17,314 bases of DNA, from assembly GCA_046753605.1 (NCBI GenBank), contig JBHHTZ010000021.1, positions 1-17,314 on the forward strand. The letters are read 5' to 3'. Numbering within the stretch: position 1 is the stretch's first letter; each line of letters starts with the position of its first letter. The DNA is from Anaerolineae bacterium (GTDB lineage Bacteria > Chloroflexota > Anaerolineae > Epilineales > JAANWY01). The position numbers and the translations under genes were made by a program. Under the pieces are notes generated by a model that saw only the letters and a list, made by a program, of their open reading frames with translations, did no database searches and was not told the origin of the DNA. Below, one piece after another: positions 1,001 through 16,359 of the stretch.

Positions 1001-2064
1001 ATAACCGACCAGGCGTGAAACTTAGCCTGGCACGGCCGGCCATTGGCGAAGAGGAACTCACCGGCCTCGGGGAAGTAAAGCACTGTGGAGATAGTAGCGG
1101 AGTGAGGCTCAATCTCCGGATGCCTGCAGATGGCATCCTGTGAACGGCCGTGGCTGGTCATCAATGCCTGCGCCCAGCCGGCGCCCACCTGGCCCTGAGC
1201 GGCTTGTAATGCCGCCGTGACCCTGGCATGCCGGCGCTCGGAGTTCCCGCGCAGATCCGCCGGATTGCGATCCACCCATTGGTCACGTAGCAACTCTGTG
1301 ACAAAGTGGTTGGTGCTGACGACAAAGCCGTCCTTGGGATGAATTACGCCCTGATGCGCGTGACCCGCCTCGAAGACAGCCACGTCACCCGTGGCGTCAG
1401 CAACTACCAACGTGCCGTCGCCAATGTGGGACACGCCCCGCAGGTAATCCAGAGCAGATTTTACGCTGTCATGGTACTCCAGGCACGCCATTTCGACGGA
1501 GTAGCGCGCCACACCGGGACCGATGTCCAGCGAAGTGACGTGGGTGTCGGCCACGGCCAGGCCGGCCTCGTTCATGCCTGAACTGAACACCGCTGGACTG
1601 CCGGCGCTGGTCACGTACGCATAGCGGTATCCCTCGGCGGGACGGGCGCGGGCCAGACATTGCAATGGCAGGTGAGCCAACCGGTAATCGCGGTTTTTCG
1701 CCAGAATCGGGGTGCCGTCCCGCGCAATCGGTGCAGCCGCCGCCCACGCCGTGCAGCCTTCGGCGTGGGCAGCGGCGACCCTACGATCCTCCAGGTACGA
1801 AGCGATGGTATAGCGGAAGAAGGGGTCCCACTCCAGTTCGAGCGCGTCGGCGATACCGCGCAGCATCTCCACCGTCGGAAGGGCTGTCACCTCCCAGGCT
1901 GACCGGAGCTCTGTCACCAGGGGCTGCACGTCCGCCTCGGACTGCGCCAGCTTCGCCAGGCGCTGATCCACGGCCTGTAAGAAAATAGGCCGCAGATCAC
2001 GAATCTGGTGGCCGTGCTGCCGGCCCATCTCATAGTGCGTGCCGGCCAGTTCGAGGACCCTCAT
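997..2064 (-). CDS. Peptidase C45 family Ntn hydrolase / acyl-CoA:6-aminopenicillanic-acid acyltransferase-like protein
   Basis: 355 aa. N-terminus [21 protein letters not shown]. Candidate nucleophile context EGCTAWAA followed by ILAKNRDY, then GMNEAGLAV and STNHF, all typical of the AAT/C45 family. Its ATG overlaps the upstream ATPase stop by 4 nt (ATGA at 2064..2061). Confidence 0.8.
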   Translation of the reverse strand: MRVLELAGTHYEMGRQHGHQIRDLRPIFLQAVDQRLAKLAQSEADVQPLVTELRSAWEVTALPTVEMLRGIADALELEWDPFFRYTIASYLEDRRVAAAHAEGCTAWAAAAPIARDGTPILAKNRDYRLAHLPLQCLARARPAEGYRYAYVTSAGSPAVFSSGMNEAGLAVADTHVTSLDIGPGVARYSVEMACLEYHDSVKSALDYLRGVSHIGDGTLVVADATGDVAVFEAGHAHQGVIHPKDGFVVSTNHFVTELLRDQWVDRNPADLRGNSERRHARVTAALQAAQGQVGAGWAQALMTSHGRSQDAICRHPEIEPHSATISTVLYFPEAGEFLFANGRPCQAKFHAWSVI

Positions 2065-3176
2065 GTTTCAACCTGCACCGAACCCGTGTCTACCCGCGAT
2101 GCTGCGAGTTGGTCATCGGCCACGGGATGATCGTCGTAGATCCAGCACGCCACCTCCTGTCCGCCCACCTGGAAGAAGGGCGGGTACCTATTCTCGCAGA
2201 TGTCACCTGCCTTGGTGAAACAGCGGGGATGGAACGGGCAACCGGAGGGCGGATCGATCGAGCTGGGCACGCTGCCGGATAGGATAATCCGTTCCCGCCG
2301 GGCCTCCTTCCGGACACGGGGGATAGCCGCCAACAACGCCTGCGTATAGGGATGCCGAGGCTCCTCGAAGAGATGGTCCGTCGGTCCCATCTCGACGATG
2401 TGGCCCAGGTACATCACCGCCACCCGATCGCTGATGTAGTTGATCACGCTGAGGTCGTGGGCAATGAATAGATACGTAAGATCGAATTCCTCCTGGAGCT
2501 CTTCCAGAAGATTGATGACCTGGGCTTGAATCGAGACGTCCAACGAAGACACCGGCTCATCGGCCACGATGAAGCGGGGTTGCATGGCCAACGCTCGGGC
2601 GATGCCGATCCGTTGTCGCTGACCACCGGAAAACTGATGAGGGTAGGAATCGATGTGGTGCTTGCTCAGCCCAACACGATTTAGGAGCTGGATCGTCGCC
2701 GCCTCACGTTCAAGGGGATCGGTGACACCCCGGTGGTACAGCGGCGTGCCGATGATGTCGCGCACCGGCTTACGGGGATTCAACGAAGAGTACGGGTTCT
2801 GAAAGACGATCTGGGCCAGGCGATAATACTTCACTTCCTGGGGGGTATCCGTGCCATTCAACGACGCAACGACTTTGTCTTCCCGAAGAGGATGTCCTTG
2901 AAAGGAAATCTCACCCGACGTCGGCTCGCAGAGGCGAGTTAGAACACGGCCCAGTGTCGTCTTGCCACAACCGCTTTCACCCACCAAGCCCAGGGTCTCA
3001 CCAGGCCAGATGCGCAGATCCACCCCATCAACGGCTCGGACAATCTTCTCTCGGGCCTGCGCCAACACCCGCGTCAAGATGCTTGGCCGGATGAGGAAGT
3101 ACTTGCGGATGTTTCGGGCCTCAATCAGCGGGGGGTCAGTTCTGTCAGTGTTTAGATTCCTCATCGATTTGCTCAC
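2061..3176 (-). CDS. Oligopeptide/dipeptide-type ABC transporter ATP-binding protein (OppF/DppF-like)
   Basis: Walker [10 protein letters not shown], signature [15 protein letters not shown], Walker [13 protein letters not shown], and a C-terminal oligopeptide-ATPase extension ([18 protein letters not shown]). GTG start at 3176. An alternative ATG is at 3164. Confidence 0.9.
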
Positions 3177-3189
3177 AATGACCTGCGGT

Positions 3190-3232
3190 GTGAAACGTGA
3201 TGCGCGAGAGAGAAAACGCCATCACGTTTCAC
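3190..3232 (-). repeat. Intercistronic hairpin: perfect 13-bp stem (3190-3202 / 3220-3232), 17-nt loop
   Basis: gtgaaacgtgatg ... catcacgtttcac. It overlaps the last codons and stop of the OppD-like gene and sits just upstream of the OppF-like start. No U tract follows on the minus strand, so it is not a classical intrinsic terminator. Confidence 0.6.
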
Positions 3233-4301
3233 GTTTTGCGCCCTCGCTCTGGACCTCGTCACTCCAATCCCAATCCTCTTCGCGCGCGTAGTTCAGATGG
3301 ATCAAACAACGGTTGATGTGGCCGGCCCCCGTCTCAATCATAGGGATTGGGCCTTCATCGCACACCGGCTGATGATGCGGACAACGCGGCGCGAAGGCGC
3401 AGCCCACCGGAAGACCGACCAGATCTGGCACATTGCCGGGGATTGGCCGCACACGCTGACCTCGTACAGCGATGCTTGGCCGGCACTCAAGCAACCCCTG
3501 CGTGTATGGATGTTGCGGACTCTCGACGACCTGATCGACGGTGCCACGCTCTACGATGCGGCCGGCATACATCACAGCAATCGTGTCGCAGAATTCAGCG
3601 GTTAATGCCAGGTCATGGGTAACCAGGATGATGGCCGTGCCGTGTTCCCGGTTGATCTGCCACATCAGATCCATGATCTGGGCCTGGATGGTGACGTCTA
3701 GCGCGGTGGTGGGCTCATCGGCCAGGAGCAAGGCCGGCCCGCACACCAACGCAATAGCAATGAGCGCGCGCTGCTGCATGCCTCCCGAGATCTGATGCGG
3801 ATACGCCGCATACCGATCCATGGGCGAGGAGATACCCACCTCGCGCATCACCTCAAGCACGCGCTCCTTTTCGCGGCGCCACTGCGCAAAATTGAAGGGC
3901 CACGGCAGCCGTGATCCATCCAGGATGCGATGCAGGCGCAGCGCCTCGCGGATCTGCTCACCCACAGGGAAGGCCGGATTCAGGGTGGAAAGAGGATCCT
4001 GGAAGATCATAGCGATTTCCTTCCCCCGGATAGTGCACATCGCTCGCTGAGATAGCGCTCGCAGGTTCTGGCCCCGGAACAGAATCTCACCCCGGGCAAT
4101 ATGTCCGGGCCGGTGGATCAGCCGCAGGACGGAGAGCAGTATAGTGCTCTTCCCGCAACCCGACTCACCCACAATGCCCAAGATTTCCCCCTCGTTCAGT
4201 GTGAGGTTGATACTATCTACTGCCTGCACTACCCCGCGATTGGTGGGATAGACCGTGCTCAAATTGCGAAGTTCCAGTAGCGCTTCTGCTCCGTATCCCA
4301 C
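3222..4301 (-). CDS. Oligopeptide/dipeptide-type ABC transporter ATP-binding protein (OppD/DppD-like)
   Basis: Walker [10 protein letters not shown], signature [15 protein letters not shown], Walker [14 protein letters not shown]-loop VTHDL, and C-terminal [22 protein letters not shown] start at 4301. Confidence 0.9.
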
Positions 4302-4538: not shown

Positions 4539-5525
4539 TCACTCGATCCTCAACCTTGGATCCAGGACATCCCGCAACCCCTCCCCAAACACATTGATGG
4601 AGAGCACCAGCAGTAGGATCGCGATGCCGGGGAAGGTGGAGACCCACCAGGCGACCAGCAAATAGTCGCGACCAGCCGCCACCATGGAGCCCCAGGCCGG
4701 CGTGGGTGGCTGGATACCCAGGCCCAAAAAGCTGAGACTCGCTTCCATGATGATCATGTGCCCCATGCGCAATGTGCCCAGCACCAACACGGACTGGATG
4801 ATGTTCGGTAAAATCTCCTGGGCAATAATGGCGGCGTTGCTCTGGCCAGTGACCTTGGCCGCCTCCACGTATTCCTGCGTCTTCTCCGACAGCATCTCAC
4901 CGCGCACCAGCCGGAAGAACTCCACCCAGCCCTTGAACGTCAGCGCCAAGATCAGGTTCGTGAAGCCGGGTCCCAGGAAGGCCATGACCCCGATAGCGAA
5001 GATGAGGTACGGGAAGGCCAGCAACAAGTCCGCAAACCGTGACACCAGACTGTCGAGCCGGCCACGATAGTAGCCGGTGATGGCGCCCAGGAACGTTCCA
5101 ATGACAACGGAGATGCCTACCGACAGAAGCCCGACGGCCAGCGAGATGCGGGCACCGAATACGATGCGCGTCAGGAGATCGCGGCCCTGCGCGTCCGTGC
5201 CCAACGGATACGACCAACTCCCCTCCAGATGCCAGGCCGGTGGATCCAGGCGCAGCCGCAGATTCCCCAGCGAGGGGTCGTGCACTGTGATCTGCTTGGC
5301 AAAGATAGCTGCTAACACATAGACCAGGACGACGATACCCCCCAGCATCGCCAGGCGATAGCTGCGCAGTTCGTCAAGGAAGCCGGCCAGGCCCTGGCGC
5401 CACAGCCTCAGGCGAACACGCCACAGATAGGCTTGCCGGGCTACCGGCGTGTCAACTTGCGGAGCAACGTCCAGTAGAAGACCTCCTGTTACACAGTACG
5501 CAATACGCTTCACGATATGCCACAC
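4539..5525 (-). CDS. ABC transporter permease (OppC/DppC-like)
   Basis: Multi-span membrane protein with a BPD-transporter core (SRFADLLLAFPYLIFAIGVMAFLGPGF.., EYVEAAKVTGQS.., LPNIIQSVLV). The start is uncertain. The GTG at 5525 has no SD. A strong AGGAGG (5487..5482) sits 7 nt before an in-frame CTG (5474..5472). No ATG, GTG or TTG occurs in frame until Met59. Confidence 0.85.
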   Translation of the reverse strand: MWHIVKRIAYCVTGGLLLDVAPQVDTPVARQAYLWRVRLRLWRQGLAGFLDELRSYRLAMLGGIVVLVYVLAAIFAKQITVHDPSLGNLRLRLDPPAWHLEGSWSYPLGTDAQGRDLLTRIVFGARISLAVGLLSVGISVVIGTFLGAITGYYRGRLDSLVSRFADLLLAFPYLIFAIGVMAFLGPGFTNLILALTFKGWVEFFRLVRGEMLSEKTQEYVEAAKVTGQSNAAIIAQEILPNIIQSVLVLGTLRMGHMIIMEASLSFLGLGIQPPTPAWGSMVAAGRDYLLVAWWVSTFPGIAILLLVLSINVFGEGLRDVLDPRLRIE

Positions 5526-5562: not shown

Positions 5563-6573
5563 TCACAACAAAATCTTCGGGTTCAAATACGTATACAATA
5601 CGTCAACAATCAAGTTAGCCATAACGAAGGTGAAGGCGTAAACCATCACAGTTCCCTGCACCAGCGGGAAGTCCCGCTCGAAGATGGCCTTCACGACCAG
5701 CCGGCCCAACCCTGGCCACCCGAACACCGTTTCGACGATCATGTTACCGCCCAGGAGCACGCCGACCTGCAAACCGACCACGGTGACAGTGGGAATCAGC
5801 GCGTTGCGTAGTGCATGCTTAAAAACGACGTGCCACTCAGGCGCGCCTTTGGCCCTGGCCAGCGTCACGTAGTCCGAGCGCAGTGTCTCCAGCATGCTGG
5901 ACCGCAGCACCCGTGCTACGACAGCCGCTACCGGCGCGCCCAGGGTTATGGATGGCAGCGCAAGGTGTTTCAAGCTGGCAGCCAGGGCGGCACGGTTCCC
6001 CGCGATCAAGCTGTCCAAGACATACAGGCCCGTGACCTCTTCCAACTGCACGCCGTAGCCGATTCGGCCTTGAACAGGCAGCCAATGCAGGCGCACAGCG
6101 AAGATCAGGATCAGCATGATGCCGAGCCAGAATCCAGGCATCGAAATGCCGAGGAAAGCCCCGGCCATACTGAACCGATCCAGCGGCGAGTTCTGGCGCA
6201 CAGCGGAGATGATGCCGATGGGAATCGCCACAACCAGACCGAAGATCAGAGCCCCTAACGCGAGCTCAATGGTTGCCGGCAAGCGCTCCGCGATGAGGGT
6301 GCTCACCGGCCGCTTCTGGACATATGAGTAGCCCAGATCGCCGCGCACGACGTCCTCGAGAAACAACCACAGTTGCACGTACAGCGGTTCGTCCAGATGG
6401 AACTCGTGGCGCAACTGCTCCATCTCGCCAGCGGAAACTGCCCCACTCTGCCCCATCATGATGTCTACCGGGTCCCCCGGCGTCAGGCGCATGAAGAAGA
6501 ACACCACAATGGCCACGCCAAACACGATGGGGATGGCGACCAAGATGCGCTCTACAACCTTGACAGCTCTCAC
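5563..6573 (-). CDS. ABC transporter permease (OppB/DppB-like)
   Basis: 336 aa. The N-terminus ..RILVAIPIVFGVAIVVFFFMRLTPGDPVDIMMG is typical of DppB/OppB. It has a BPD-transporter core (DYVTLARAKGAPEW..HALRNALIPTVTVVGLQ). GTG start at 6573 is preceded by GAGGGGAG. Confidence 0.9.
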   Translation of the reverse strand: MRAVKVVERILVAIPIVFGVAIVVFFFMRLTPGDPVDIMMGQSGAVSAGEMEQLRHEFHLDEPLYVQLWLFLEDVVRGDLGYSYVQKRPVSTLIAERLPATIELALGALIFGLVVAIPIGIISAVRQNSPLDRFSMAGAFLGISMPGFWLGIMLILIFAVRLHWLPVQGRIGYGVQLEEVTGLYVLDSLIAGNRAALAASLKHLALPSITLGAPVAAVVARVLRSSMLETLRSDYVTLARAKGAPEWHVVFKHALRNALIPTVTVVGLQVGVLLGGNMIVETVFGWPGLGRLVVKAIFERDFPLVQGTVMVYAFTFVMANLIVDVLYTYLNPKILL

Positions 6574-6623
6574 AGGTTACACTCCCCTCACCACAACTCC
6601 CTCAACTAAGGGCGTGTCAAGAA

Positions 6624-6744
6624 CTCGACTTTGGCCATTTTGAGGAGTGAGCACGCCTACGTGCGAATGGCTCACAAGATACGGCACGTGGGCGTGCCTT
6701 ACTCCTCAATATATTGTGGTATTAGCAGAATGGCCAAAGTCGAG
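6624..6744. repeat. 121-nt nested palindromic element (MITE/REP-like or structured RNA)
   Basis: The outer stem is a perfect 16-bp stem: ctcgactttggccatt at 6624-6639 against aatggccaaagtcgag at 6729-6744. The inner stem is imperfect and about 24 bp: ttgaggagtgagcacgcctacgtg at 6640-6663 against cacgtgggcgtgccttactcctcaa at 6685-6709. Confidence 0.7.
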
Positions 6745-6836
6745 AAGAAAAAACTTCCCGCTTTCTCGCCGTCAGTCGAGCCAGACATGCGTGACTCCTG
6801 GCAGAATACGACCTGGCAGCGAGTTCGCCTGAGCAT

Positions 6837-6890
6837 CCCTTCGACAAGCCGCCGTGGTGAGCCTGTCGAACCATCAGGACGCCGCCTGAG
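6837..6890 (+). repeat. Dispersed palindromic repeat, copy A (intergenic)
   Basis: The 42-nt core cccttcgacaagccgccgtggtgagcctgtcgaaccatcagg (6837-6878) is identical to 10968-11009 and to the reverse complement of 16769-16810. The internal arms ttcgacaag / cctgtcgaa can pair. Confidence 0.9.
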
Positions 6891-6915
6891 CGGCTGCGAA
6901 CGGAGTGAAGCAGCA

Positions 6916-6973
6916 TATCGAAGGGTGCGGCCACTCCAGGCCAATGTGTCATTGCGAGCCGCACCCTTCGATA
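6916..6973. repeat. Perfect 16-bp inverted repeat with 26-nt loop
   Basis: tatcgaagggtgcggc at 6916-6931 against gccgcacccttcgata at 6958-6973. The loop contains gtcattgcgag. Confidence 0.8.
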
Positions 6974-7034
6974 CGGCCTTCAGCCTACCCAGGATGCTTG
7001 CCCTATTCTCCGATTCGGCCCTATACCCGCCTCG

Positions 7035-8756
7035 CTACGGAGTCAGGCATACATCATGCAGGTTGATGCGGCTGTCCGAAGCCGGCTCCCAGTTCTGGAC
7101 ACGGATCGATGCAGCCTCGGCTTCCTCTGGCAGCACCAGGAACACCGCCGGCGTCTCTTCATAGACGATCTCCTGAGCTTCGTCGTAGATCTCGTGGCGC
7201 TTCGCCGGATCTGCTGTGGTCTCGCCTTCCTTGATGAGCTCGTTTACTCGCTCGTTGCTGTAGGTCGAGAAGTTTCCGCGACCGTAGGGCGTCCCTTCCA
7301 CGCGGCCGTGCCACTTGGCCTCGAAGTGGCCGACTGGATCAAAGGCCGAGTCGCCCCAGTTGTCCAGGTAGGCCATCCGCTCCCCGGCGAGCAGTTTCGG
7401 CTTCACCACACTGTACTCCCAGATGCGGACGCCGGCATCGATGCCCAGAGCCCGGAATTGGCCGGCCACCGCCTCTGTCAGAGTACGATGCAGCTCGATC
7501 GTATCGATCGTGAAGGCGAACGGCTGACCATCCTTGTCCAGGATACCATCGCCGTCCGAATCAGTCCAGCCGGCTTCCTCAAGCAGAGCCAGTGCTTTGT
7601 CTGGATCGTATGGGTACGGCTTCAGATCTTTATTGACGAAGTTGTTGAACGGCGACAGTGGCCCCGGGAGCGCCACCGCGCGCCCACCGTAGAGTTCATC
7701 AATGATGAGCTGTTTATCCACAGCGTAGTTCAGCGCCTGGCGAGCCCGTACGTCGTCGAAAGGCGGCCGGTTGACGTTCATCTCCATCCACCTGGGCTGG
7801 GTGCTCGGCGCTGTCTTCACCTGAATCCCGGGTGTCTGGGCCAGGGTATCAACCAGCTCCGGCGGCACCGCCTGGATGATGTCCACCTCGCCGGCTAGCA
7901 ACGCCGCGACGCGGGTCGACGCTTCGGGGATCACGCGGAAGACCGCACGCTCCGCACAGGCCGGTCCCACCGGCTCCAGGTCAGGTGACCCGCCGTAGTA
8001 GTCATCGAAGCGCTCCAGCACCACCTCTTCCAGACCCGACTTGGCAGAGACGAACTTGAACGGCCCGGTGCCTACGGGCTTCTCGATGAAACCTTTCGTA
8101 CCCACTTCCTCCAGGTAGTGCTTGGGCACGATCTGCTGATGCACGATGAGCTGCATGGCCGGCGGCCAGGGGCCGCTGAAATGCATCACTACGCTGTAGT
8201 CGCCCGTCTTCTCAACGGCCTCCAGGGGCGCGATGAGGCCCTTGCGCGGGGAGGTATGGGCCTCCGGGTACTCGATAGCGTTCTCCCGGATGATGCGGTT
8301 GAACGTGAACACCACGTCGTCAGCTGTCATCTCCGTGCCGTCGTGGAACCTGACACCCCTGCGGAGCTTGACCTCCAACGTCTGGTCGTCCAACCAGTTC
8401 ATCTCCTCCGCCAATTGCAGGTGGACGCCGCTGCGAGTGTCACGGGTGACCAGGCCGTCGAGCATGTTGCGGATCACCGTCTCCGATTGCCGGCTACGAT
8501 GATCAGCCGGGTCCAGCGACGTTGGAGCGGAAGCCAGGCCCACAACAATCGTCTGACGCCCCGGAACAGGAGTGGGCGTGACGACCTTCTCGACCTGCTC
8601 TTTCTCCTTAACCACCACCGTCTCTTTGACCACGACGGTTTCCTTAACAGTCTTCTCCTCGACGCGAACCTCTGGCGTCGGCTGCGCACAGGCACCGACC
8701 ACCAGGCCCAAGAGCAAAAAAACGGCCAGGATGATCAGGTTCTTTCGGTTGAACAT
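7035..8756 (-). CDS. ABC transporter substrate-binding lipoprotein, family 5 (peptide/opine/nickel type)
   Basis: 573 aa. Signal peptide plus lipobox (LLLGLVVGAC, Cys23). A repetitive linker VKETVVVKETVVVKEKEQVEKVV is coded at about 8580-8648. The mature domain has family-5 SBP character (TIVVGLASAPTSLDP.., FKFVS.., RPPFDDVRARQALNYAVDK.., WGDSAFDP). SD AAGGAGGAGG precedes the ATG. Confidence 0.85.
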   Translation of the reverse strand: MFNRKNLIILAVFLLLGLVVGACAQPTPEVRVEEKTVKETVVVKETVVVKEKEQVEKVVTPTPVPGRQTIVVGLASAPTSLDPADHRSRQSETVIRNMLDGLVTRDTRSGVHLQLAEEMNWLDDQTLEVKLRRGVRFHDGTEMTADDVVFTFNRIIRENAIEYPEAHTSPRKGLIAPLEAVEKTGDYSVVMHFSGPWPPAMQLIVHQQIVPKHYLEEVGTKGFIEKPVGTGPFKFVSAKSGLEEVVLERFDDYYGGSPDLEPVGPACAERAVFRVIPEASTRVAALLAGEVDIIQAVPPELVDTLAQTPGIQVKTAPSTQPRWMEMNVNRPPFDDVRARQALNYAVDKQLIIDELYGGRAVALPGPLSPFNNFVNKDLKPYPYDPDKALALLEEAGWTDSDGDGILDKDGQPFAFTIDTIELHRTLTEAVAGQFRALGIDAGVRIWEYSVVKPKLLAGERMAYLDNWGDSAFDPVGHFEAKWHGRVEGTPYGRGNFSTYSNERVNELIKEGETTADPAKRHEIYDEAQEIVYEETPAVFLVLPEEAEAASIRVQNWEPASDSRINLHDVCLTP

Positions 8757-8954
8757 ATCCTCCTCCTTGCTCGTTGCAATTCATGTGTAGACTGAACCAA
8801 GAGCGATCAGTGAACCGGCTGCAGACAGCGTTTCTTTTAGTTATCACCTCCTTTCTGTGTGGAGAGCGGAGATGCAGGGGTGCTGGGGTGAGAGGGAGAA
8901 CCTTCTCGCTTCCTGCCCCCCCGTGCTCCCTTGCACCCAGGCTCCCTGGCCCAA

Positions 8955-11900
8955 CTAGGCTGGCACCAACGCACGCTCATGTACCGAGACTTCCACATCG
9001 AGCGGCAGGAGCTCACGTTTCATGACCCGCAGCGCCTGCTCCGGATGCACCCGGCCATACAAACCACCCAGGATACCCACCAGGTACTTGGCATCCAGCA
9101 ACATCGGTCCCGTGGGCCGCAGGATGTGCGACTTCTCAGGATCATACAGCACGCCGCTGGCAATCAGTGCCAGATCTTCCTTGAAACCAGGTTCCCAATC
9201 CCGACACTTGTGATAAATCGTGCCGCCGATGAGCAGCACCGTCACGGGCTGGTTGAAGTAGTTCACGCCATACTGCAGGAAATACGTCTCCGTTTCGTCC
9301 ACCCGACCAACGTGCTTGCCCGTTGCCACGGCCATGATCTCCTTTGCCAGGAAGGACCGCGCGGCATTTTCCAACACCGTCTCCGGAACTCGGTGCGGGT
9401 TCTGAGTGAGCCAGCTCAGGTAGTTGTCCAAGTCCACCTGGTAGGTACCGTCGTAGCTGCGGACGAAGCGCCGAAACTGATCGTCGCCTGGACCGAAGTC
9501 GCTGGGGAAGCGGACAGCGAGGTAGCGACTCATTTCGCGCGCCATCGCATCATTCTGGAAGCGCTCCAACTCCTTCAGGTTCTCAGCATTGTAGCTCAGG
9601 CCATACTTGCCTTCCACGCGACGGTACACCAGCGGCACGTTCGGGGTCTTCAGGATTGTGCGCTTCACCCTGCGTCGATGATCCTCACCGGGATAGAGGT
9701 ACAGCGGGTTATCATCCACGTTAGAGTAGAAGTCCGTCGTCGCGCCACCGATGTCGAGGGCCACGATGTTACCCAGACCCTCTTCACCACCGTATCCCTG
9801 CGCCAGCAGGTTGATGCCCCGAAAAGTCGCTCGCGGGGTCGGCATGAACGGTGCATCCATATACTCCTCAACCACGTCGAAGCCCTTGCCTCGGATGATC
9901 ACCGTCTGGAAGAGCTCGCGGATGGCCTCGTTTACCACCTCGATGTGGAACTCGTTGATCTCGGGCATGATGTTGGGCGTCACGCGGATGTCCACATCGT
10001 GGTGGTGGAAGATATTCTCGATCTGCTCACGGATGTCCTGGTTGCCGGCGTAGATCACGGGTACGCCGTACTCGGTGTAGGCGACATACTTGGCCGCCTC
10101 AGCCAGCATGCGGGCGTTGTGGAGCTGTGTCCCGGTGTCGCCGCCCTGATCCGTGCCACCGGCCAAGAGAATGATCTCCGGCTCGTCAACTTCGTAGATG
10201 GCGCGCGCCTGCTCGGGTGTTAGCTTGCCTTCGTAGGTGCCCAAGAGCTTGGCGCCGGCCGTCAGCGCTGCCAACTCGGCCGCGAAGCCCGATTCCTCCT
10301 TCACCAGTGACACGGTCACCATCTTGAGGCCACCCTTCGCGCTGGAGCAAGGCAGACGCACCACGAACTCGCCCATCTTCTCCGCCAACGGCTGCCAGTC
10401 GCCACGCTCTTCACATGCCTCCAATACCCCTAGCCCATTGGCCAAACCGGCGCGGATGTCCTCAACCGTGGTGGGCACGTAGCGCAACTCGAAGATCTCG
10501 TCCTTGGTGTCGAAGATGCCAACCTTCGTATAGGTGCTGCCAAAGTCCACCACCAACACCTTCTCGTCCGCCAGACCGGTCACGCCGATTTGTTTGCGAA
10601 ACCTGGCCACGGTTTCGTCGTCGATCTCTTCGACCTCAGCGTCCTCCACGATAAAGGTGTCGTCATCGGCGCGCGTCACGTCTTTGTAGAAGTACCACGG
10701 ATAGCGCTCACGGACGAGGTCCACGCGTTCGAGCTCACTGCCGACTTTGATGCCGTCCCACTCGTCGATGCGACACATGCCGCCGACGACCTTGGTGCGG
10801 CAGGCGCCGGCCATCTCGTACCGCCGGTCGACGACCGTGATGTGTGGGCCCTGGAACAGGCCAATCTGCAACGCCAGGTCTAGCGTGTCAGCGCTGATCA
10901 GGCCGCAGGCCCCGGTCGGGTAGTTCGCCTCATCGATCAGGCTGAGCAACATGGTCTCGAAGTTCTTCCCTTCGACAAGCCGCCGTGGTGAGCCTGTCGA
11001 ACCATCAGGGCGTCGCCCAGGATCCTCTTCCGGCTCATGAGCCCACTCCCAAAAGTTCTCCGGTGTGACAGGGCCGTCATACCCGCCGAGGATGGCGCCA
11101 TGAAGCAAGTTGTACATGGCACCCTGCTTCAACTCCAGCTTGCGGTCCTTCAACACCGGATCATTCCAGATATCAGGCATGTGCCCTTTGACGAAATCCC
11201 AGCAAACCTGCTTCGTAATCTCGCAGGACTCGATGATGTCGTCGGCGCCAGCCTCGTGGTGGGCCTCGGAGTGGGTGACTACGTGCAAGATGTCGGGCTC
11301 CAGATAGAGCTGGGTGTAGATGCCAAAAGCGAGATGTCCTTTGGCCTCATTCAGATTAGGCGGGAAGCTGGGCAGTCCCGATCGTGTCTGTTTGATGATA
11401 CTGAAATCGAAGTGGCGTGTGAGAGGCTCGGCCAACTCGTAGGCCGCCTTCATCTTCGCCAGATCATCCAGCGCCGAGATTTCGGGCGGCAACTCGAACA
11501 TCATCTGCATCACGTAGTGCTTGACGCTCTTCTTCAGCGCGATGACGGCACAGAGGACATGGTCGGCAACCTGCATGTCGTCGCTGGCATAGCGCAGGCC
11601 CCACTGATGAGGGTCGTTGATCTCCACCGGCTTACCCTGTTCAGTCCACCATTCAATCGTGCGGAAATGTTCATCGAAAGAATCGCGGATGCTGATGGGG
11701 CCGCGCCCGTCCAGTTCGTTGTAGAAGAAGATAGGCACAGCCGGAAAAGCCATATTCAGATGCTCTTCCCACAGCTTGGCCAGCTCGATCAGCTCGTCGG
11801 TGCCAGTGTAGATACGGGTCAGGGGGTAGTTGCCCCGTTGCGAAGCAGCTTTCAGACGCTTCAGGTCTTCTATGGTGCGGATCGGCGCACCACCCTGGCC

Positions 11901-12761
11901 GGCTAGATACCTGTCAGGCTCCTCTTCGCCTCGGATGAACTTGGCGAGAAGCTCTTGCGAGGTCTGATCCGGAGCCAGAGAGACGATTTCGAGAGCGCCG
12001 GCATCGGACAGCTTCTCAATCGCCTTCACCGTGGGTTCGATGCTTTCATCAGCGATGCCGATGTGAGCGCGGATAATCGGACGGTTCTCCCGCTCACGCA
12101 CCTGGCGAATGCGCTCAACCAGGTAATCAGACCATTCAAGCTCCTTCGCCTCGTGGGCTGGCGGCACCCGATGAGCGAAGCGCTCCAGCTCCTCCATCGT
12201 CACGAAATCGTCCACTACGAGTTCGAAGAAGCCCTGGAAGTGCTCCTTGTCTTTGTACTCTTCAGCTACCTCATCCAGGTCAAAGTGCCTCTCGTCCTCG
12301 CGGACGAAGCGGTCCGGTTCCAGCGGTAGGCCGGTCATAGCTCGGACCACGTTGGCTGCCGGCCGCAATCCCCCGAAGGTGTAGCGAATGCCACTTTCCC
12401 GAGGGTGCAACCCGTGTTTGGTCGCCGATTCCACGAACTCAGTGATCAGCTTGTCCACGTGCAGGTCGCCCAGCCGCATGGACACACCGACGACCTCGGG
12501 GCGCGCTTCGCGGATCTTGTTGATGACTTCCTGGATCGGGACGGCTGGCCCCAGCTTAACAGTCACATAGCCCAAGCCCAGATCTTCCATCCACCCGGCA
12601 AAGTTTTCAACACCCAGATTGTGGACACATTTGCCGATGGCTCCTACCATGACCCGCCGCTTCGTGGTGAGCTCCGTCCCGAGCCCGTCGAGGGGCTTGT
12701 CGAACCGCTTGTGATCCGAATCTGGCGGCTTTTCTTCGGCCTTCTCGTTTGATAAATCCAT
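8955..12761 (-). CDS. Large fusion protein: B12-binding (GlmS/MutS-like) domain + GlmE/MutE-like TIM barrel + GlmL/MutL (glutamate mutase L, ASKHA reactivase-like) domain
   Basis: 1268 aa. ATG at 12761 with SD CAGGAGGT at a 9-nt spacing. (1) aa ~36-140: VMVGAIGKCVHNLGVENF..VVGVSMRLG..RYTFGGL has the layout of the cobalamin-binding Rossmann domain (DxHxxG...SxL...GG), with Cys at the Asp position. (2) aa ~205-695: RPIIRAHIGIADESIEPTVKAIEKLSDAGALEIVSLAPDQTSQ ... LTRIYTGTDELIE ... PVEINDPHQWG ... HVVTHSEAHHEAGADDIIES ... GLFQGPHITVVDRRYEMAGACRTKVVGGMCRIDEWDG parallels, as I recall it, clostridial GlmE (ITMAQPRAGV..ADFLPSTIDAYTRQ ... QARHGTPD ... INREPFGPLTG ... IVKTPHEAIGIPT ... [30 protein letters not shown]). 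(3) aa ~733-1268: KVLVVDFGSTYTKVGIFD ... CSSAKGGLKM ... IILLAGGTDQGGDTGTQLHNARMLA ... VIYAGNQ ... MPTPRA ... IVALDIGGATTDFYS closely follows GlmL/MutL (IDFGSTYTKV, ACSSAAGGLKM, ILLAGGTDGGN, VVAGNK, MPTP, VVDIGGATTD). Domain (3) is high confidence, domain (1) good, domain (2) moderate. Confidence 0.8.
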   Translation of the reverse strand: MDLSNEKAEEKPPDSDHKRFDKPLDGLGTELTTKRRVMVGAIGKCVHNLGVENFAGWMEDLGLGYVTVKLGPAVPIQEVINKIREARPEVVGVSMRLGDLHVDKLITEFVESATKHGLHPRESGIRYTFGGLRPAANVVRAMTGLPLEPDRFVREDERHFDLDEVAEEYKDKEHFQGFFELVVDDFVTMEELERFAHRVPPAHEAKELEWSDYLVERIRQVRERENRPIIRAHIGIADESIEPTVKAIEKLSDAGALEIVSLAPDQTSQELLAKFIRGEEEPDRYLAGQGGAPIRTIEDLKRLKAASQRGNYPLTRIYTGTDELIELAKLWEEHLNMAFPAVPIFFYNELDGRGPISIRDSFDEHFRTIEWWTEQGKPVEINDPHQWGLRYASDDMQVADHVLCAVIALKKSVKHYVMQMMFELPPEISALDDLAKMKAAYELAEPLTRHFDFSIIKQTRSGLPSFPPNLNEAKGHLAFGIYTQLYLEPDILHVVTHSEAHHEAGADDIIESCEITKQVCWDFVKGHMPDIWNDPVLKDRKLELKQGAMYNLLHGAILGGYDGPVTPENFWEWAHEPEEDPGRRPDGSTGSPRRLVEGKNFETMLLSLIDEANYPTGACGLISADTLDLALQIGLFQGPHITVVDRRYEMAGACRTKVVGGMCRIDEWDGIKVGSELERVDLVRERYPWYFYKDVTRADDDTFIVEDAEVEEIDDETVARFRKQIGVTGLADEKVLVVDFGSTYTKVGIFDTKDEIFELRYVPTTVEDIRAGLANGLGVLEACEERGDWQPLAEKMGEFVVRLPCSSAKGGLKMVTVSLVKEESGFAAELAALTAGAKLLGTYEGKLTPEQARAIYEVDEPEIILLAGGTDQGGDTGTQLHNARMLAEAAKYVAYTEYGVPVIYAGNQDIREQIENIFHHHDVDIRVTPNIMPEINEFHIEVVNEAIRELFQTVIIRGKGFDVVEEYMDAPFMPTPRATFRGINLLAQGYGGEEGLGNIVALDIGGATTDFYSNVDDNPLYLYPGEDHRRRVKRTILKTPNVPLVYRRVEGKYGLSYNAENLKELERFQNDAMAREMSRYLAVRFPSDFGPGDDQFRRFVRSYDGTYQVDLDNYLSWLTQNPHRVPETVLENAARSFLAKEIMAVATGKHVGRVDETETYFLQYGVNYFNQPVTVLLIGGTIYHKCRDWEPGFKEDLALIASGVLYDPEKSHILRPTGPMLLDAKYLVGILGGLYGRVHPEQALRVMKRELLPLDVEVSVHERALVPA
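10968..11021 (+). repeat. Dispersed palindromic repeat, copy B, lying in-frame inside the mutase-fusion CDS
   Basis: 10968-11009 is 42/42 identical to copy A, and similarity continues to about 11021 with 2-3 mismatches. On the coding (minus) strand these 54 nt are 18 codons, PGRRPDGSTGSPRRLVEG (aa 581-598). Confidence 0.9.
12664..12706 (-). repeat. Diverged repeat-family copy inside the N-terminal extension of the mutase-fusion CDS
   Basis: gtggtgagctccgtcccgagcccgtcgaggggcttgtcgaacc is about 79% identical (34/43 by hand) to 15285-15327. It shares cgtggtgagc and tgtcgaacc with the type-1 core. It is translated as RFDKPLDGLGTELTT (aa 19-33), upstream of the B12-domain start. Confidence 0.55.
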
Positions 12762-12814: not shown

Positions 12815-12850
12815 ACGCATCAGACGATACTCACGCATCACGACGCATCA
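12815..12850. repeat. Three direct copies of ACGCATCA (TGATGCGT on the coding strand)
   Basis: Copies at 12815-12822, 12833-12840 and 12843-12850. The second overlaps the ODH stop codon. The third lies within the last ODH codons. Confidence 0.5.
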
Positions 12851-14013
12851 TAGACTAAGTCTTTCAGCTCGTAGAAACCATACCGCTGCGGCGCACGTGT
12901 GGCTGCCGCATCGCGGCCCTGCAACTTTCCGTCGACCAGATATTCCTTTTCAAGTTGCTCCTGTGCCCACGTGATGACCTGATCCATGGTTGGCGTTGCC
13001 ACACCGGCCAGCTCCGCGATGCTCCGTGTCACCACCAAGCCATAGGGCACATCTTCGGCCAGATAGCGGGCGTGAAAATCCGGCGCCAATCCGCCCTCGG
13101 CTGGGCGCATGGGGGCACGGAGGCCGGCATAGCTGCGGTTCGTCACAAAACAGCTCTGCAACGTAGTTGGATCAGCGATATCCTTGCCGTACGAGCGTCG
13201 TGCCCACTCATCCAGCGACCGCACAGCAGACAGATTGAGATCCGGGTAGTGGCGCTCCAAGACGGCACGCAACGTCTGGACTTCATCGCTCAGTTGCTGG
13301 AGGATGCCGGCTATGGTGGCGTTGATGCCCTGGTAGAAGGACGGTGCTTTGGCATAGGGCCGGCCATCCCAATCGTGGAACAGACCGTACATTATGCCGG
13401 GGTGAATGAGCTGCCCGGTGTTGGCCAGCGTGAGACCGAGAAGGCTTGCCGCATGTTGCAGGCGAATCCCCAACGGATCACTGAGCAACCCGGAGATTTT
13501 GCCGGCATAGGATGGCGGCAAAGCCGCCAGATCGACTTGCTTCTTGGTACCGAGGATTGTGACTTCCTCCCCATACATGTTGAGCCGGCAGGCCCACGGC
13601 AGCGTCTGCAAACCAAAGACGACGATGGACGCCGTCTTACCCCCCAGAACATCCTCCACACACCAGTCAAATCCGCCGCGAGCCGGCAGCGCTCCCAACC
13701 AAGCCCCGTCGTCGATGTAAGGAGCGATGTCGCGTAGAACGATCTCGTGCGCAAAGGCCGGCAAAGCCAACAACACGAGCCGCGAGCCCGGAATGACCTC
13801 CGCCGGATCGGCACTGATGCGAGCGGGCCGGCCCACGACACGACCACGTGGCATGACAGCGGTTACACCGCCTCGAGCTTCCATGGCCTGACGCCAGCGT
13901 TGAGTCTCGTCGCCGTACGGAGCGTACACGTTCACGGCCCAGTCGCGCCGGCCGGCTAACAAGCTGACCAGAGCGTGAGCTCCGTTCCCACCTCCACAGA
14001 CAGCAACTTGCAT
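12838..14013 (-). CDS. NAD(P)-dependent opine dehydrogenase (octopine/nopaline dehydrogenase family)
   Basis: 391 aa. N-terminal dinucleotide fold MQVAVCGGGNGAHAL. Central/C-terminal LANTGQLIHPGIMYGLFHDWDGRPY and FHARYLAEDVPYGLVV are characteristic of opine dehydrogenases. The ATG is 1 nt after the RpiR stop, with GGAG at -7. Confidence 0.8.
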   Translation of the reverse strand: MQVAVCGGGNGAHALVSLLAGRRDWAVNVYAPYGDETQRWRQAMEARGGVTAVMPRGRVVGRPARISADPAEVIPGSRLVLLALPAFAHEIVLRDIAPYIDDGAWLGALPARGGFDWCVEDVLGGKTASIVVFGLQTLPWACRLNMYGEEVTILGTKKQVDLAALPPSYAGKISGLLSDPLGIRLQHAASLLGLTLANTGQLIHPGIMYGLFHDWDGRPYAKAPSFYQGINATIAGILQQLSDEVQTLRAVLERHYPDLNLSAVRSLDEWARRSYGKDIADPTTLQSCFVTNRSYAGLRAPMRPAEGGLAPDFHARYLAEDVPYGLVVTRSIAELAGVATPTMDQVITWAQEQLEKEYLVDGKLQGRDAAATRAPQRYGFYELKDLVYDAS

Positions 14014-14014
14014 A

Positions 14015-14878
14015 CTACTCCGTGATTAGAAGGTTTCGTTTGCGATACGCCGTGTCGACCCGCCGCAGGGCATCCATGCTCTGCTCCGGCACCCGATACG
14101 AGAGAGCGGCAATGAGCACGTTGATGAGCGCGATGGTCGCCGTCGGTGATAGGCTATGCGTGACTCCATCCGTAGCCACCTCGAAAGCATAGTCCGCTGC
14201 CTGTGCCAGCGGTGAGACGACGCTGTCGGTGATCGCCACGACCGGTGCTCCCTGTTGACGAGCTGCGTACACCGCCTCCACTGTGGAACGTACGTAGCGC
14301 CACAGATCGATAGCAATCAGGAGCGTATCCACACCGAGTTGTGCTGTGTCCACAGCCAAGGAAAGCCCACCGTCCAGGGCTGCCCGCGCATCGAAGCCAA
14401 TGACCTTCAGTGAGTGGGCCAAGAACAGCGCCGGCACTGTGGAGAGCCCCGAACCAACGACAAGGATATGGTCCGCACGCACGATCTCTTCCAGGACAGC
14501 ATCAAGCTGCTGCGCAGACAGTCTGCTGGCTGTGCGTTGAAGATTGGTGATGTCGGTGTGAAAGACCTGTTGGGGAATGTCATCTGCGGCCGGAGGTGTG
14601 GTCAACCGCTCTTGCATGCGCTCGACGGTAGTCAGATAACTGGGGAGTTCCTCACGGATCGTAGCCTGGAGTTCAGAGAAACCCTCGTACCCCAAGCCCT
14701 GAGCAAAGCGAACCACGGTGGCAGCGCTGGCATCGACCTTGTCCCCCACCTCGCCGGCTGACGCAAAGGACACGAAGTACTTGTTTTCCAGAACGAAGCG
14801 CGCCAGCCGTCTCTGCTTACCACTGAATCCATCGAGGGATGCCCTGATCCGTTCTTCTAAGGTGTCTGTCGAACCCAT
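14015..14878 (-). CDS. MurR/RpiR-family transcriptional regulator (HTH_6 + SIS domain)
   Basis: 287 aa. N-terminal HTH: RRLARFVLENKYFVSFASAGEVGDKVDASAATVVRFAQGLGYEGFSELQ. SIS sugar-isomerase-type domain: ILVVGSGLSTVPALFLAHSL .. LLIAIDLWRYVRSTVEAV .. GAPVVAITDS. SD CAGGAGGA precedes the ATG. Confidence 0.9.
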   Translation of the reverse strand: MGSTDTLEERIRASLDGFSGKQRRLARFVLENKYFVSFASAGEVGDKVDASAATVVRFAQGLGYEGFSELQATIREELPSYLTTVERMQERLTTPPAADDIPQQVFHTDITNLQRTASRLSAQQLDAVLEEIVRADHILVVGSGLSTVPALFLAHSLKVIGFDARAALDGGLSLAVDTAQLGVDTLLIAIDLWRYVRSTVEAVYAARQQGAPVVAITDSVVSPLAQAADYAFEVATDGVTHSLSPTATIALINVLIAALSYRVPEQSMDALRRVDTAYRKRNLLITE

Positions 14879-14914: not shown

Positions 14915-14943
14915 ATTATATCACAGGCCGCCGAGAATTGCAA
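14915..14943 (-). promoter_or_regulatory. Sigma-70-type promoter of the rpiR-led operon: -35 TTGCAA (14943..14938), 17-nt spacer, -10 TATAAT (14920..14915)
   Basis: The minus strand reads TTGCAAttctcggcggcctgtgaTATAAT. The -10 is about 37 nt upstream of the rpiR-like ATG (14878). Confidence 0.65.
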
Positions 14944-15420: not shown

Positions 15421-16359
15421 TCACGACAGTTTGCCAACCGAACGCAGGTACGCCTCCACTGCCCGCCGGGTGGTGACCCAGTTGCGCCCCCGTTTGATGG
15501 CCTCCAGCCGGCCCTTGCGCGCCAGCAGGCTGAGGTATTCCTGGCTATAGGGCGTACCTTTGGCCGCTTCTGCAAGCGGAATGTACTCGCCCTCAGCCGC
15601 CGGCGGCCCCTCCTGGGGAGTCAATGCCTCCAGGTAGACGGTCAGCGCATGTTCCACGGCCCGTCCCACGAAGTTGATCAGGGGAGCCAGGTTTCCAGCG
15701 TCGGCCTTAGCCAGCGCGCTGTAGTAGCTGCGGCGGTCCACCTTGCGGATGACTGTCGGAGGGTAGCCGTCCTGCATGAGGAGCAGGTTCATGACCAGGC
15801 GCGCCGTGCGGCCGTTGCCGTCGATGAAGGGGTGAATGTAGACCAACCGATGATGCGCTTCGGATGCGCGCTGCACCGGATGCAGCAACCGGGCATCGGT
15901 GGCCAACCATTCCGCGAACCCTTGCATGAGATGGGGCACATCCCAGGGCTCGGGGGGCCGATGATTCGCACCTCCGATGCGCACAGGCAATTTGCGGTAC
16001 TGGCCGGCCTCTGCATCGTCTATCTTAGCCAGCACCAGGGCATGGATCTGACGGACGGTGTGCGCAGTGATGGGTTCCCCTTTCCGGGCCAGGTCTTCGA
16101 CAAAGTCGATAGCCTCTTTGTGGTTGAGCACCTCGAAGTGTTCGCGCAGGGACTTGCCGGCGATGGTCAGACCAGTCTCCAGCACCAACCGAGTTTCCTT
16201 GAGGGTCAGCGTATTGCCCTCGATGGCGTTGGAATTGTAGATCCACTCCAGGGTGATGCGCTCCCAGAGCCGGGTGAGAGCGGCTCTGGGCAAGGGACGC
16301 AGAGCGTCCAGTTGTGCCTTTTTGGTTTCGATGCGCGCCTTCAGGCGTGGGTCAAGCAC
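15421..16359 (-). CDS. Fic-family protein (AMPylase-type) with N-terminal inhibitory helix and C-terminal helix-turn-helix
   Basis: 312 aa. Fic motif HPFIDGNGRTAR (15834..15799). N-terminal (S/T)xxxE(G/N) inhibitory motif SNAIEGN (class II arrangement). The C-terminus IPLAEAAKGTPYSQEYLSLLARKGRLEAIKRGRNWVTTRRAVEAYL looks like an excisionase/MerR-type HTH. GTG start. Confidence 0.9.
   Translation of the reverse strand: MLDPRLKARIETKKAQLDALRPLPRAALTRLWERITLEWIYNSNAIEGNTLTLKETRLVLETGLTIAGKSLREHFEVLNHKEAIDFVEDLARKGEPITAHTVRQIHALVLAKIDDAEAGQYRKLPVRIGGANHRPPEPWDVPHLMQGFAEWLATDARLLHPVQRASEAHHRLVYIHPFIDGNGRTARLVMNLLLMQDGYPPTVIRKVDRRSYYSALAKADAGNLAPLINFVGRAVEHALTVYLEALTPQEGPPAAEGEYIPLAEAAKGTPYSQEYLSLLARKGRLEAIKRGRNWVTTRRAVEAYLRSVGKLS

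Follow-up and report, generated by a model that had tools for sequence, protein, structure and literature searches.

We analysed a window of 17,314 nucleotides (nt), the stretch from position 1 to 17,314 of contig JBHHTZ010000021.1 in the Anaerolineae bacterium assembly GCA_046753605.1, which encodes on its minus strand a single polypeptide of 1,268 amino acids (aa) that combines a putative cobalamin-binding S domain, a GlmE-like E domain and a GlmL-type L domain, the three building blocks of the glutamate mutase system. This S-E-L architecture is real and conserved, it represents one clade of a large family of S-E proteins, and its gene is tied in evolution to one of the opine dehydrogenase (OpDH) family. 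The protein is probably an adenosylcobalamin (AdoCbl) radical isomerase of the glutamate mutase lineage that acts on a substrate other than glutamate, carries its repair ATPase in cis and works together with the OpDH. The parts of the open reading frame (ORF), with the evidence for each, are as follows.

8955–12761, minus strand: whole S-E-L fusion ORF, a single ATG-to-stop frame of 1,268 aa plus stop
12342–12662, minus strand: S domain (aa 34–140), putative cobalamin-binding Rossmann (flavodoxin-like) domain, from a sub-threshold PF02310 match, the family profile and the AlphaFold2 (AF2) model
12612–12629, minus strand: Cys45-Val-His47-Asn-Leu-Gly50, a variant of the DxHxxG His-on motif, from homologue alignments
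12147–12341, minus strand: S-E connector (aa 141–205) including an insertion of ~33 aa (aa ~144–176), from the alignment and low-confidence AF2 segments
10662–12146, minus strand: E-like domain (aa ~206–700), predicted TIM barrel with C-terminal extension, from Foldseek, hhalign and PF06368 matches in distant relatives
~12234–12332 and ~10926–11075, minus strand: clade-specific insertions, from alignment with S-E relatives
10560–10661, minus strand: acidic E-L linker (aa 701–734), with low predicted local distance difference test (pLDDT) values and poorly conserved in the close-homologue alignment
9009–10559, minus strand: L domain (aa 735–1251), ATPase of the GlmL/MutL family with acetate and sugar kinase/Hsc70/actin (ASKHA) fold, from PF13941, TIGR01319, Escherichia coli GlmL and AF2

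An initial annotation of the window, made from the letters and their translations, had proposed one uninterrupted frame with the three components in S-E-L order, and this reading held. All landmarks it quoted were located in the ORF, namely GAIGKCVHNLG (aa 40–50), VSMRLG (aa 93–98) and FGG (aa 129–131) in the S part and VVDFGSTYTKVG (aa 737–748), CSSAKGGLKM, LLAGGTDQGG and DIGGATTDFYS in the L part. In a search space of 5.8 billion proteins, the fusion has more than 120 full-length homologues (1,198–1,284 aa, 72–98% identity over 96–100% of the query), mostly from metagenome bins of Anaerolineae and Caldilineae. Our locus sample comprised 80 fetched loci plus those taken earlier, and the neighbour surveys cover 88 or 89 loci. 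At 54 related loci, which span several phyla, the E and L parts share one open frame of ~1,210–1,358 codons; the frame is broken at five loci, which look like frameshifted or truncated contigs of metagenome-assembled genomes (MAGs), and five further contigs stop before the L part. An uncultured Anaerolineales MAG (L011) is 97% identical to the window and collinear with its operon as far as the contig reaches. The numbers of full-length homologues and single-frame loci rule out an assembly or frameshift artefact, and equally a chance ORF of this GC-rich window or a mis-join. Compared with S-E relatives of ~550 aa, two insertions (aa ~144–176 and ~563–612) are found in the L-fused clade only. 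The second lies inside the E domain and is variable in length; in the window it carries an additional stretch rich in Gly, Arg and Pro, GRRPDGSTGSPRRLVEGK, which the consensus of close homologues lacks. On the plus strand, ORFs as long as 430 aa run antisense to real genes (8931–10223, 11037–11906 and 7056–7898); they are artefacts of GC-rich DNA, not genes, because their homologues elsewhere appear only as antisense shadows.

Databases of domain families recognised the two ends of the protein and not its centre: aa ~140–734 had no match in Pfam or NCBIfam, searched with the whole protein and with the isolated middle domain (E ≤ 10), and phmmer against PDB sequences returned weak matches for the B12 domain only and none for E or L. 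The S-like Rossmann domain named in the initial annotation stands by the family profile, while its textbook signatures are incomplete, with PF02310 at 26.6 bits (gathering score 32.1) and Cys in place of Asp in DxHxxG. The family profile matched many solved B12-binding domains (4jgi, 2yxb, 7xcn, MetH, HcmB, GlmS, OraE, IcmF and KamE; E = 9e-8 to 0.05), among them corrinoid proteins and an archaeal mutase small subunit, and the AF2 model of the domain has an alternating beta/alpha pattern. GlmS of E. coli O157 gave no significant pairwise BLASTP match to the fusion protein; in the alignment, its GADCHAVG segment pairs with CVHNLG. All 45 close homologues and all 14 diverse relatives compared have C45, H47 and G50, and further B12 landmarks (Ser94..Leu97, Gly130-Gly131) are present. 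The Cys variant is invariant throughout the fusion clade and the closer unfused relatives; a more distant family branch keeps Asp-Pro-His-Thr-x-Gly (DPH type). This conserved Cys for Asp is a natural variant of the lower-ligand network and could inform how the reactivity of the cobalt-carbon (Co–C) bond is tuned.

Three independent lines, predicted fold, profiles and transitive hits, identify the middle region as a remote GlmE homologue, as the initial annotation had judged from landmarks that track GlmE by eye. The AF2 model of aa 1–734 was of moderate confidence (pLDDT 71.9, predicted template modelling score 0.65). Its best PDB matches in Foldseek, a comparison that the annotation had suggested, were the glutamate mutase epsilon chains 6h9e_B and 1cb7_B (E = 1e-12, probability 1.0, target-normalised template modelling (TM) score 0.62–0.63, ~490 aligned columns). 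The best fold matches were all AdoCbl isomerase barrels, with GlmE followed by OraE, KamD and methylmalonyl-CoA mutase; those to OraE and KamD were weaker (E = 5e-10 to 8e-8, versus 1e-12 for GlmE). Profile comparison with hhalign of 44 diverse relatives against a GlmE alignment gave 84% probability (E = 8e-6, ~300 columns), extended to ~400 columns in global and relaxed modes, and pairs NMAFPAVPIFFYNELDG (aa 336–352 of the fusion protein) with ...NEGGGISYNVPY..., the same pairing that had been made by eye. PF06368, the family proposed for this region in the initial annotation, failed to match either the whole protein or the middle domain alone, even at E ≤ 10, and the family profile did not reach GlmE among PDB sequences. 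Distant relatives of the middle domain do match PF06368 (P0132 at 27.5 bits, gathering score 26.6; P0141 at 25.1 bits), and many more distant relatives carry precomputed PF06368 matches. Identity of the E domain to GlmE is ~13–17%.

Substrate contacts were compared in the numbering of Clostridium cochlearium GlmE, with the sequence recovered from 6h9e_B. In GlmE, contacts to the glycyl half of the substrate come from Arg66, Arg149 and Glu171, and those to the acrylate half from Arg100 and Tyr177 (PMC10947579). The alignments pair GlmE with the fusion protein as follows.

GlmE Arg149: Tyr318 here, a residue invariant across the whole family
GlmE Glu171: Pro343 here (Pro340 in a single-sequence run)
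GlmE Arg100: Gln269 here, in a low-confidence region
GlmE Arg66: His233 here, ambiguous, with an invariant Arg231 two residues upstream, in a low-confidence region
GlmE Tyr177 and Asn178: Tyr347 and Asn348 here, kept
GlmE His329-Glu330-Ala331: Ser498-Glu499-Ala500 here, on the cofactor side
GlmE GGFPxDxxKA: PSFPPNxxEAKG here, conserved

From these residue pairings, the cofactor-facing side of the barrel looks preserved and the pocket for the amino-acid half of glutamate looks rebuilt. In GlmE, the retained Glu330 binds the adenosyl ribose. Of the four residues that hold glutamate, three are replaced throughout the family members examined, and the fourth, Arg66, is ambiguous. The initial annotation had reported that the glutamate-binding landmarks are not conserved, and the change of Arg100, Arg149 and Glu171 to Gln269, Tyr318 and Pro343 agrees with this. 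Its suggestion of a different substrate is supported by the same replacements and by the absence of a methylaspartate ammonia-lyase gene from all 89 loci surveyed (the window and 88 related loci; tblastn with the E. coli O157 lyase, E ≤ 1e-3). On both grounds a true glutamate mutase was rejected and, judged by its aligned active-site residues, the fusion protein is not one. That it is nonetheless a genuine, divergent and fused glutamate (methylaspartate) mutase (EC 5.4.99.1), converting L-glutamate to 3-methylaspartate, we consider very unlikely. In its favour, the fold comes closest to GlmE, the C-terminus falls best into the GlmL family, the database name is 'glutamate mutase L', at a distant locus (L009) genes for a glutamate symporter and a GlnK/GlnL-like two-component system lie upstream, and a relative carries a fused ATP-grasp domain of the glutamate-ligase type; yet the pocket replacements are family-wide, PF06368 finds no match, the score for the GlmL equivalog NF040745 falls short of its cutoff (296 bits against 475), and the constant genomic partner is an OpDH instead of the lyase.

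The GlmL-like C-terminal domain of the initial annotation was recovered with high significance by PF13941 (MutL; E = 5.2e-91, 306 bits, cutoff 27, profile positions 1–450 of 450) and by TIGR01319 (GlmL family; 214.4 bits, above the cutoff of 204.05), and NF040744 matched at 170 bits. The domain is 28% identical to GlmL of E. coli O157 (E = 1e-37), and in this alignment the phosphate-1, phosphate-2 and adenosine motifs are intact, DFGSTYTK, GGTDQGG and DIGGATTD pairing with DIGSTWTK, GGTD-GG and DMGGATTD. No solved structure matched L by sequence. Foldseek on the AF2 model (pLDDT 73.8, again moderate) confirmed the predicted ASKHA fold, with N-methylhydantoinase, acetophenone carboxylase (hydantoinase-A type), glycerol and sugar kinases and EutJ as matches. 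A resemblance to diol dehydratase reactivase was unsupported. L contains only three scattered cysteines and neither an Fe-S motif nor a Cys cluster. The model also has a flavodoxin-like sub-domain of ~140 aa (aa ~800–930, nt ~9970–10360, minus strand) that matches receiver domains, HcmB 4r3u_C and the MetH cobalamin domain (TM 0.54–0.61); it might mimic or dock the S domain, although the fold is very common and the match may mean little. Of the 'reactivase-like' L proposed earlier, GlmL-family membership stands, while 'reactivase' is for the whole GlmL family an interpretation and not a demonstrated activity: a single paper with a mention of GlmL came up, and for a 'reactivation' role it cites work on diol dehydratase reactivase; to our knowledge the role of GlmL/MutL is assumed by analogy rather than demonstrated. 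It is quite unlikely that L is a catalytic module for an ATP-dependent step (substrate phosphorylation or hydantoinase-like ring opening) that became fused in catabolic clusters. Such a role would fit the best fold matches (N-methylhydantoinase, acetophenone carboxylase and sugar kinases), a weak Hydant_A_N match in one relative and the presence of L only in the clade tied to uptake and hydrolysis genes, but the profile match to GlmL/MutL is strong and specific, GlmL lies between the S and E genes in canonical operons, and no kinase or hydantoinase substrate-binding residues were identified.

A HMMER search with the middle domain yielded 300 representatives at 50% clustering. Relatives with at least 51% identity are S-E-L fusions, and relatives at 23–44% identity consist of S and E domains only (~540–630 aa). 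A profile of the unfused S-E proteins collected more than 4,460 protein clusters at E ≤ 1e-10, and when one genome per species was scanned, relatives turned up in no fewer than 596 stretches, Asgard archaea included. Besides Chloroflexi, the fusion clade occurs in Bacillota, Bipolaricaulota, Ignavibacteriales, Spirochaetales, Atribacterota, Armatimonadota and Zixibacteria; unfused members occur in Firmicutes (Caldanaerobacter, Thermoanaerobacter, Halothermothrix, Caminicella and Lutispora), Armatimonadota and other groups, and are named 'cobalamin-dependent protein', 'cobalamin B12-binding domain-containing protein' or, wrongly, 'methionine synthase' in the databases. The unfused proteins (e.g. 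of Halothermothrix orenii, Caldanaerobacter subterraneus, Thermoanaerobacter and Promethearchaeota) share with the fusion the S and E domains, an adjacent OpDH gene and the invariant barrel residues R231, Y318, D351, E380 and D394, and their closer half also shares the CVH motif. In contrast to the fusion, they lack an L domain, the two clade-specific insertions and a nearby ATP-binding cassette (ABC) importer and amide hydrolase, and a GlmL homologue is missing from the surrounding 6 kb. The absence of L from the unfused S-E relatives fits an accessory role for it. Further associations of unfused S-E relatives (P0132, P0133, L009 at 5871–6872, L006, L081, L086 and L089) comprise the fusion of one relative to a glutathione-synthetase-type ATP-grasp domain and of another to an M15 peptidase, as well as neighbouring genes for a Ddl-like ATP-grasp ligase or an AsnB-like amidotransferase (the latter at four loci). 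The literature searched holds no assigned function for this family, and it contains no paper that treats the S-E-L architecture, the S-E proteins or a connection of opine dehydrogenases with B12 enzymes.

The gene preceding the fusion encodes its constant partner.

12838–14013, minus strand: OpDH family gene (391 aa; PF02317), 76 nt upstream of the fusion gene

The encoded protein matches PF02317 with E = 3e-34 and, along its entire length, shares 39% identity with the octopine dehydrogenase of the scallop Pecten maximus (3c7a; E = 1.4e-89). It is a strikingly close bacterial relative of the opine dehydrogenases of marine invertebrates. His212, Arg324 and Asp329, the catalytic residues of octopine dehydrogenase, are invariant in nine aligned sequences (eight partner enzymes and the scallop reference), and the triad is kept even in OpDH partners of unfused proteins that are only 22–25% identical. 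In the tblastn survey an OpDH homologue was adjacent on the same strand, directly upstream or downstream, in 79 of 88 loci, bacterial as well as Asgard archaeal; of the nine exceptions, eight are cut short on one or both flanks, and the Mesoaciditoga locus (L079) is the sole one with full flanks and no OpDH match. An Octopine_DH family gene lies directly upstream in all six unfused loci with gene calls and overlaps the S-E gene by 4 bp in four of them. The search for S-E-L fusions and conserved neighbourhoods that the initial annotation had recommended thus returned both a conserved fusion and a conserved neighbour. When all neighbouring ORFs were clustered in search of a further conserved gene that might reveal the substrate, OpDH was the only universal neighbour, and AsnB-like, ATP-grasp, MttB, C26 and D-aminoacylase-like proteins were confined to few loci. 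We found no precedent for such a near-universal pairing, which points to a pathway that joins B12 radical chemistry to N-carboxyalkyl amino acids.

The partner enzyme also bears on the idea of an AdoCbl aminomutase or eliminase-type enzyme that acts on the amino group of, for example, a secondary-amine opine, with OpDH oxidising the product. OpDH acts on C–N bonds, the order mutase then dehydrogenase is known from the fermentation of ornithine and lysine, OraE and KamD are the next-best fold matches, and GlmL-related proteins accompany ornithine aminomutase (the NF040744 matches). We nevertheless hold this alternative to be unlikely, since Pfam and NCBIfam gave no match to a pyridoxal phosphate (PLP)-dependent aminomutase family, GlmE ranks clearly above OraE and KamD with full-length coverage, and Tyr177 and Asn178, holders of the acrylate fragment in GlmE, are conserved. 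A PLP aminomutase in particular was rejected on the missing family match and the lower fold rank.

The fusion and OpDH genes belong to a nine-gene cluster in the order RpiR/MurR regulator, OpDH, S-E-L, SBP_bac_5 protein, two permeases, two ATPases and C45, and all genes from 14878 down to 997 lie on the minus strand. The remaining features of the cluster are listed below.

14915–14943, minus strand: sigma-70-like promoter match upstream of the regulator (TTGCAA-17-TATAAT, extended TG, 10/12), a consensus match only
14015–14878, minus strand: RpiR/MurR-family regulator (HTH_6 + SIS; Pfam, NCBIfam), first gene of the cluster
7035–8756, minus strand: substrate-binding protein of the Opp/Dpp/Nik type (SBP_bac_5; Pfam)
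5563–6573 and 4539–5525, minus strand: ABC importer permeases (Pfam)
3222–4301 and 2061–3176, minus strand: ABC importer ATPases (Pfam)
997–2064, minus strand: C45-family autoproteolytic N-terminal nucleophile (Ntn) acyltransferase/hydrolase (PF03417; NF040521 at 181.7 bits, cutoff 85), last gene of the cluster

The substrate-binding protein reaches no NCBIfam equivalog cutoff, and its PDB relatives bind peptides, glutathione, agrocinopine or nickel. The nine-gene order is identical in Caldilinea (L001) and in another Chloroflexi genome (L002). Across 65 fusion-type loci, neighbour counts, to be read as minimum values given the contig ends and the 6-kb flanks, were 61 for OpDH, 33 for RpiR, 31 for the binding protein, 20–26 for the permeases, 23 for the ATPase and 20 for C45. 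Fusion members outside the Chloroflexi keep the importer, and C45 may give way to other hydrolases, namely a D-aminoacylase-like amidohydrolase (five loci) or a C26 gamma-glutamyl-hydrolase-like protein (five loci); a GntR/UTRA regulator replaces RpiR at seven fusion-clade loci. Loci with such hydrolase or regulator swaps are L037, L041, L044–L046, L048, L049 and L057. Rfam and tRNA scans of the window had no match, and specifically none to a cobalamin riboswitch. Between the binding-protein gene and the first permease gene lies an unusually long gap of 460 nt (6574–7034) that contains, on the minus strand, a promoter-like match (6737–6708) and a terminator-like hairpin (6698–6683) and has no Rfam match. 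A Fic/DOC family protein with a C-terminal HTH_17-like region (15421–16359, minus strand) lies upstream of the cluster and is probably unrelated, and the N-terminal part of a RecA/KaiC-like P-loop ATPase (GAYTSGKTT; 1–~400, minus strand) runs off the left end of the window.

Seven fusion-type clusters (L038, L040 at 170–1552, L047, L052, L066, L068 and L072) include an MttB-family (trimethylamine/betaine) methyltransferase gene, placed among the ABC importer genes where neighbours are visible and absent from the window. Like the importer, hydrolase and regulator genes of the fusion clade, it does not accompany the unfused family. It may point to N-methylated substrates or to methyl-corrinoid chemistry. 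A methyl-corrinoid system, in which S would be a methyl-shuttling corrinoid protein, the barrel a methyltransferase and L a reductive activase like RamA or RACo, would agree with these clusters, with the best single-sequence matches of the S domain (the methyltransferase corrinoid proteins 4jgi, MttC, MtgC and MtaC) and with the ASKHA fold of known corrinoid activases. It seems scarcely probable to us, however, given that the barrel matches AdoCbl isomerases with no methyltransferase barrel in the top 50, that the B12-binding_2 cap domain (PF02607) is lacking, that L, with its few cysteines and no Fe-S motif, belongs to the GlmL family by profile, and that MttB is missing from most loci.

For the AdoCbl isomerase that we favour, the following course can be envisaged. 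The N-terminal Rossmann domain would hold the cofactor base-off/His-on via His47, and the GlmE-like TIM barrel would sit over the corrin and bind the substrate and the adenosyl group, so that Co–C homolysis would initiate a 1,2-rearrangement. The tethered L would spend ATP in cis to expel damaged cob(II)/(III)alamin or supply new cofactor, much as the fused G-protein chaperone serves IcmF; ASKHA ATPases exchange or activate the cofactor for eliminases and corrinoid methyltransferases. Products of the operon would import an amide-linked amino-acid derivative and then hydrolyse it, and the mutase/OpDH pair would interconvert an amino-(di)carboxylate and an N-(carboxyalkyl) 'opine' form, leading to ordinary keto and amino acids. 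An opine-type N-substituted substrate is an attractive idea, at present a speculation, which would rationalise the loss of the glycyl clamps (Arg149, Glu171) alongside the kept Tyr177. As a tentative but reasonable proposal, the S-E(-L)/OpDH pair may carry out a B12 chemistry not yet known, in which a substrate other than glutamate undergoes radical rearrangement; the most attractive candidate would be an opine-type N-(carboxyalkyl) amino acid, or the amino-acid half of one. Other substrate ideas, namely peptidoglycan-derived gamma-D-Glu peptides, N-substituted glutamate and cyclic imino-dicarboxylates, are neither supported nor excluded.

Several points weigh against the isomerase reading. 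The family is known only from sequence and predicted structure. The fusion protein itself has no significant sequence match to GlmE, E. coli GlmE shows no BLAST similarity to the E domain, and both AF2 models (pLDDT 72 and 74) derive from shallow alignments. The pocket residues were read from profile alignments, in which the first two barrel strands (R66, R100) are of low confidence, and GlmE Lys326 is not kept and aligns to Val495. The Asp of the His-Asp pair is replaced by Cys45. For L, the best fold matches are hydantoinase-A-type ATPases and kinases, so substrate activation is possible; diol dehydratase reactivase is not among its top 50 fold matches, and the repair role of GlmL is argued by analogy. 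The MttB gene in seven clusters (PF06253, E = 5e-75) leaves room for methyl-corrinoid chemistry, and why an OpDH would need a mutase is without explanation.

Few AdoCbl isomerase specificities are known, and a family of this size and phylogenetic breadth, which combines glutamate mutase cofactor machinery with a remodelled pocket, is a well-defined target for enzyme discovery. If our reading is true, it would add a new AdoCbl isomerase specificity across hundreds of bacterial species and Asgard archaea, and the S-E-L fusion would give the first direct evidence, of the 'Rosetta stone' kind, for a physical action of GlmL-type ATPases on the mutase as a cofactor-repair module. A natural single-chain S-E-L enzyme makes the role of GlmL directly testable.

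Among known systems, GlmS/GlmE and GlmL of Clostridium cochlearium, C. tetanomorphum and E. coli O157 (ECs_0762–0764) comprise the same three building blocks, and GlmSE shares with the fusion Tyr177/Asn178 and the HEA (SEA in the fusion) and GGFP..KA motifs; His-on binding would be expected in the fusion too. Glutamate mutase is, however, made of three proteins with gene order S-L-E, has Asp in DxHxxG and is accompanied by methylaspartate ammonia-lyase, whereas the fusion is one polypeptide in S-E-L order with Cys at this position and OpDH as partner. OraS/OraE (3kow) and KamD/E (1xrs) likewise join an AdoCbl barrel to a Rossmann domain and are accompanied by a GlmL relative (Or-4), but they are PLP-dependent, while the fusion has no aminomutase HMM (hidden Markov model) match and lower fold scores to them than to GlmE. 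The diol and glycerol dehydratase reactivases DdrAB and GdrAB and EutA are ASKHA-type ATPases that exchange damaged cobalamin and provide the model usually assumed for GlmL; unlike L, they are separate two-subunit proteins serving eliminases, and they lie outside the top 50 fold matches of L. A single chain with a GlmE-like barrel, a B12 domain and a non-amino-acid substrate is known in 2-methyleneglutarate mutase (Mgm) of the nicotinate fermentation of Eubacterium barkeri, in which the B12 domain is C-terminal (E-S order) and MgmL is a separate GlmL-like protein encoded nearby. IcmF (PDB 4xc6, 5cju), whose chains are among the fold matches of the S-E model, is also a natural mutase-chaperone fusion, of isobutyryl-CoA mutase with a MeaB-like G-protein chaperone. 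No MeaB-like GTPase domain was detected in our protein by Pfam or NCBIfam, so the resemblance is functional only: the chaperone of IcmF is a P-loop GTPase placed between the domains of an enzyme with an acyl-CoA mutase barrel, whereas in the fusion the candidate is a C-terminal ASKHA ATPase next to a GlmE-type barrel. The components of the S-E-L protein are of known kinds, and the joining of a mutase to its chaperone has a precedent in IcmF.

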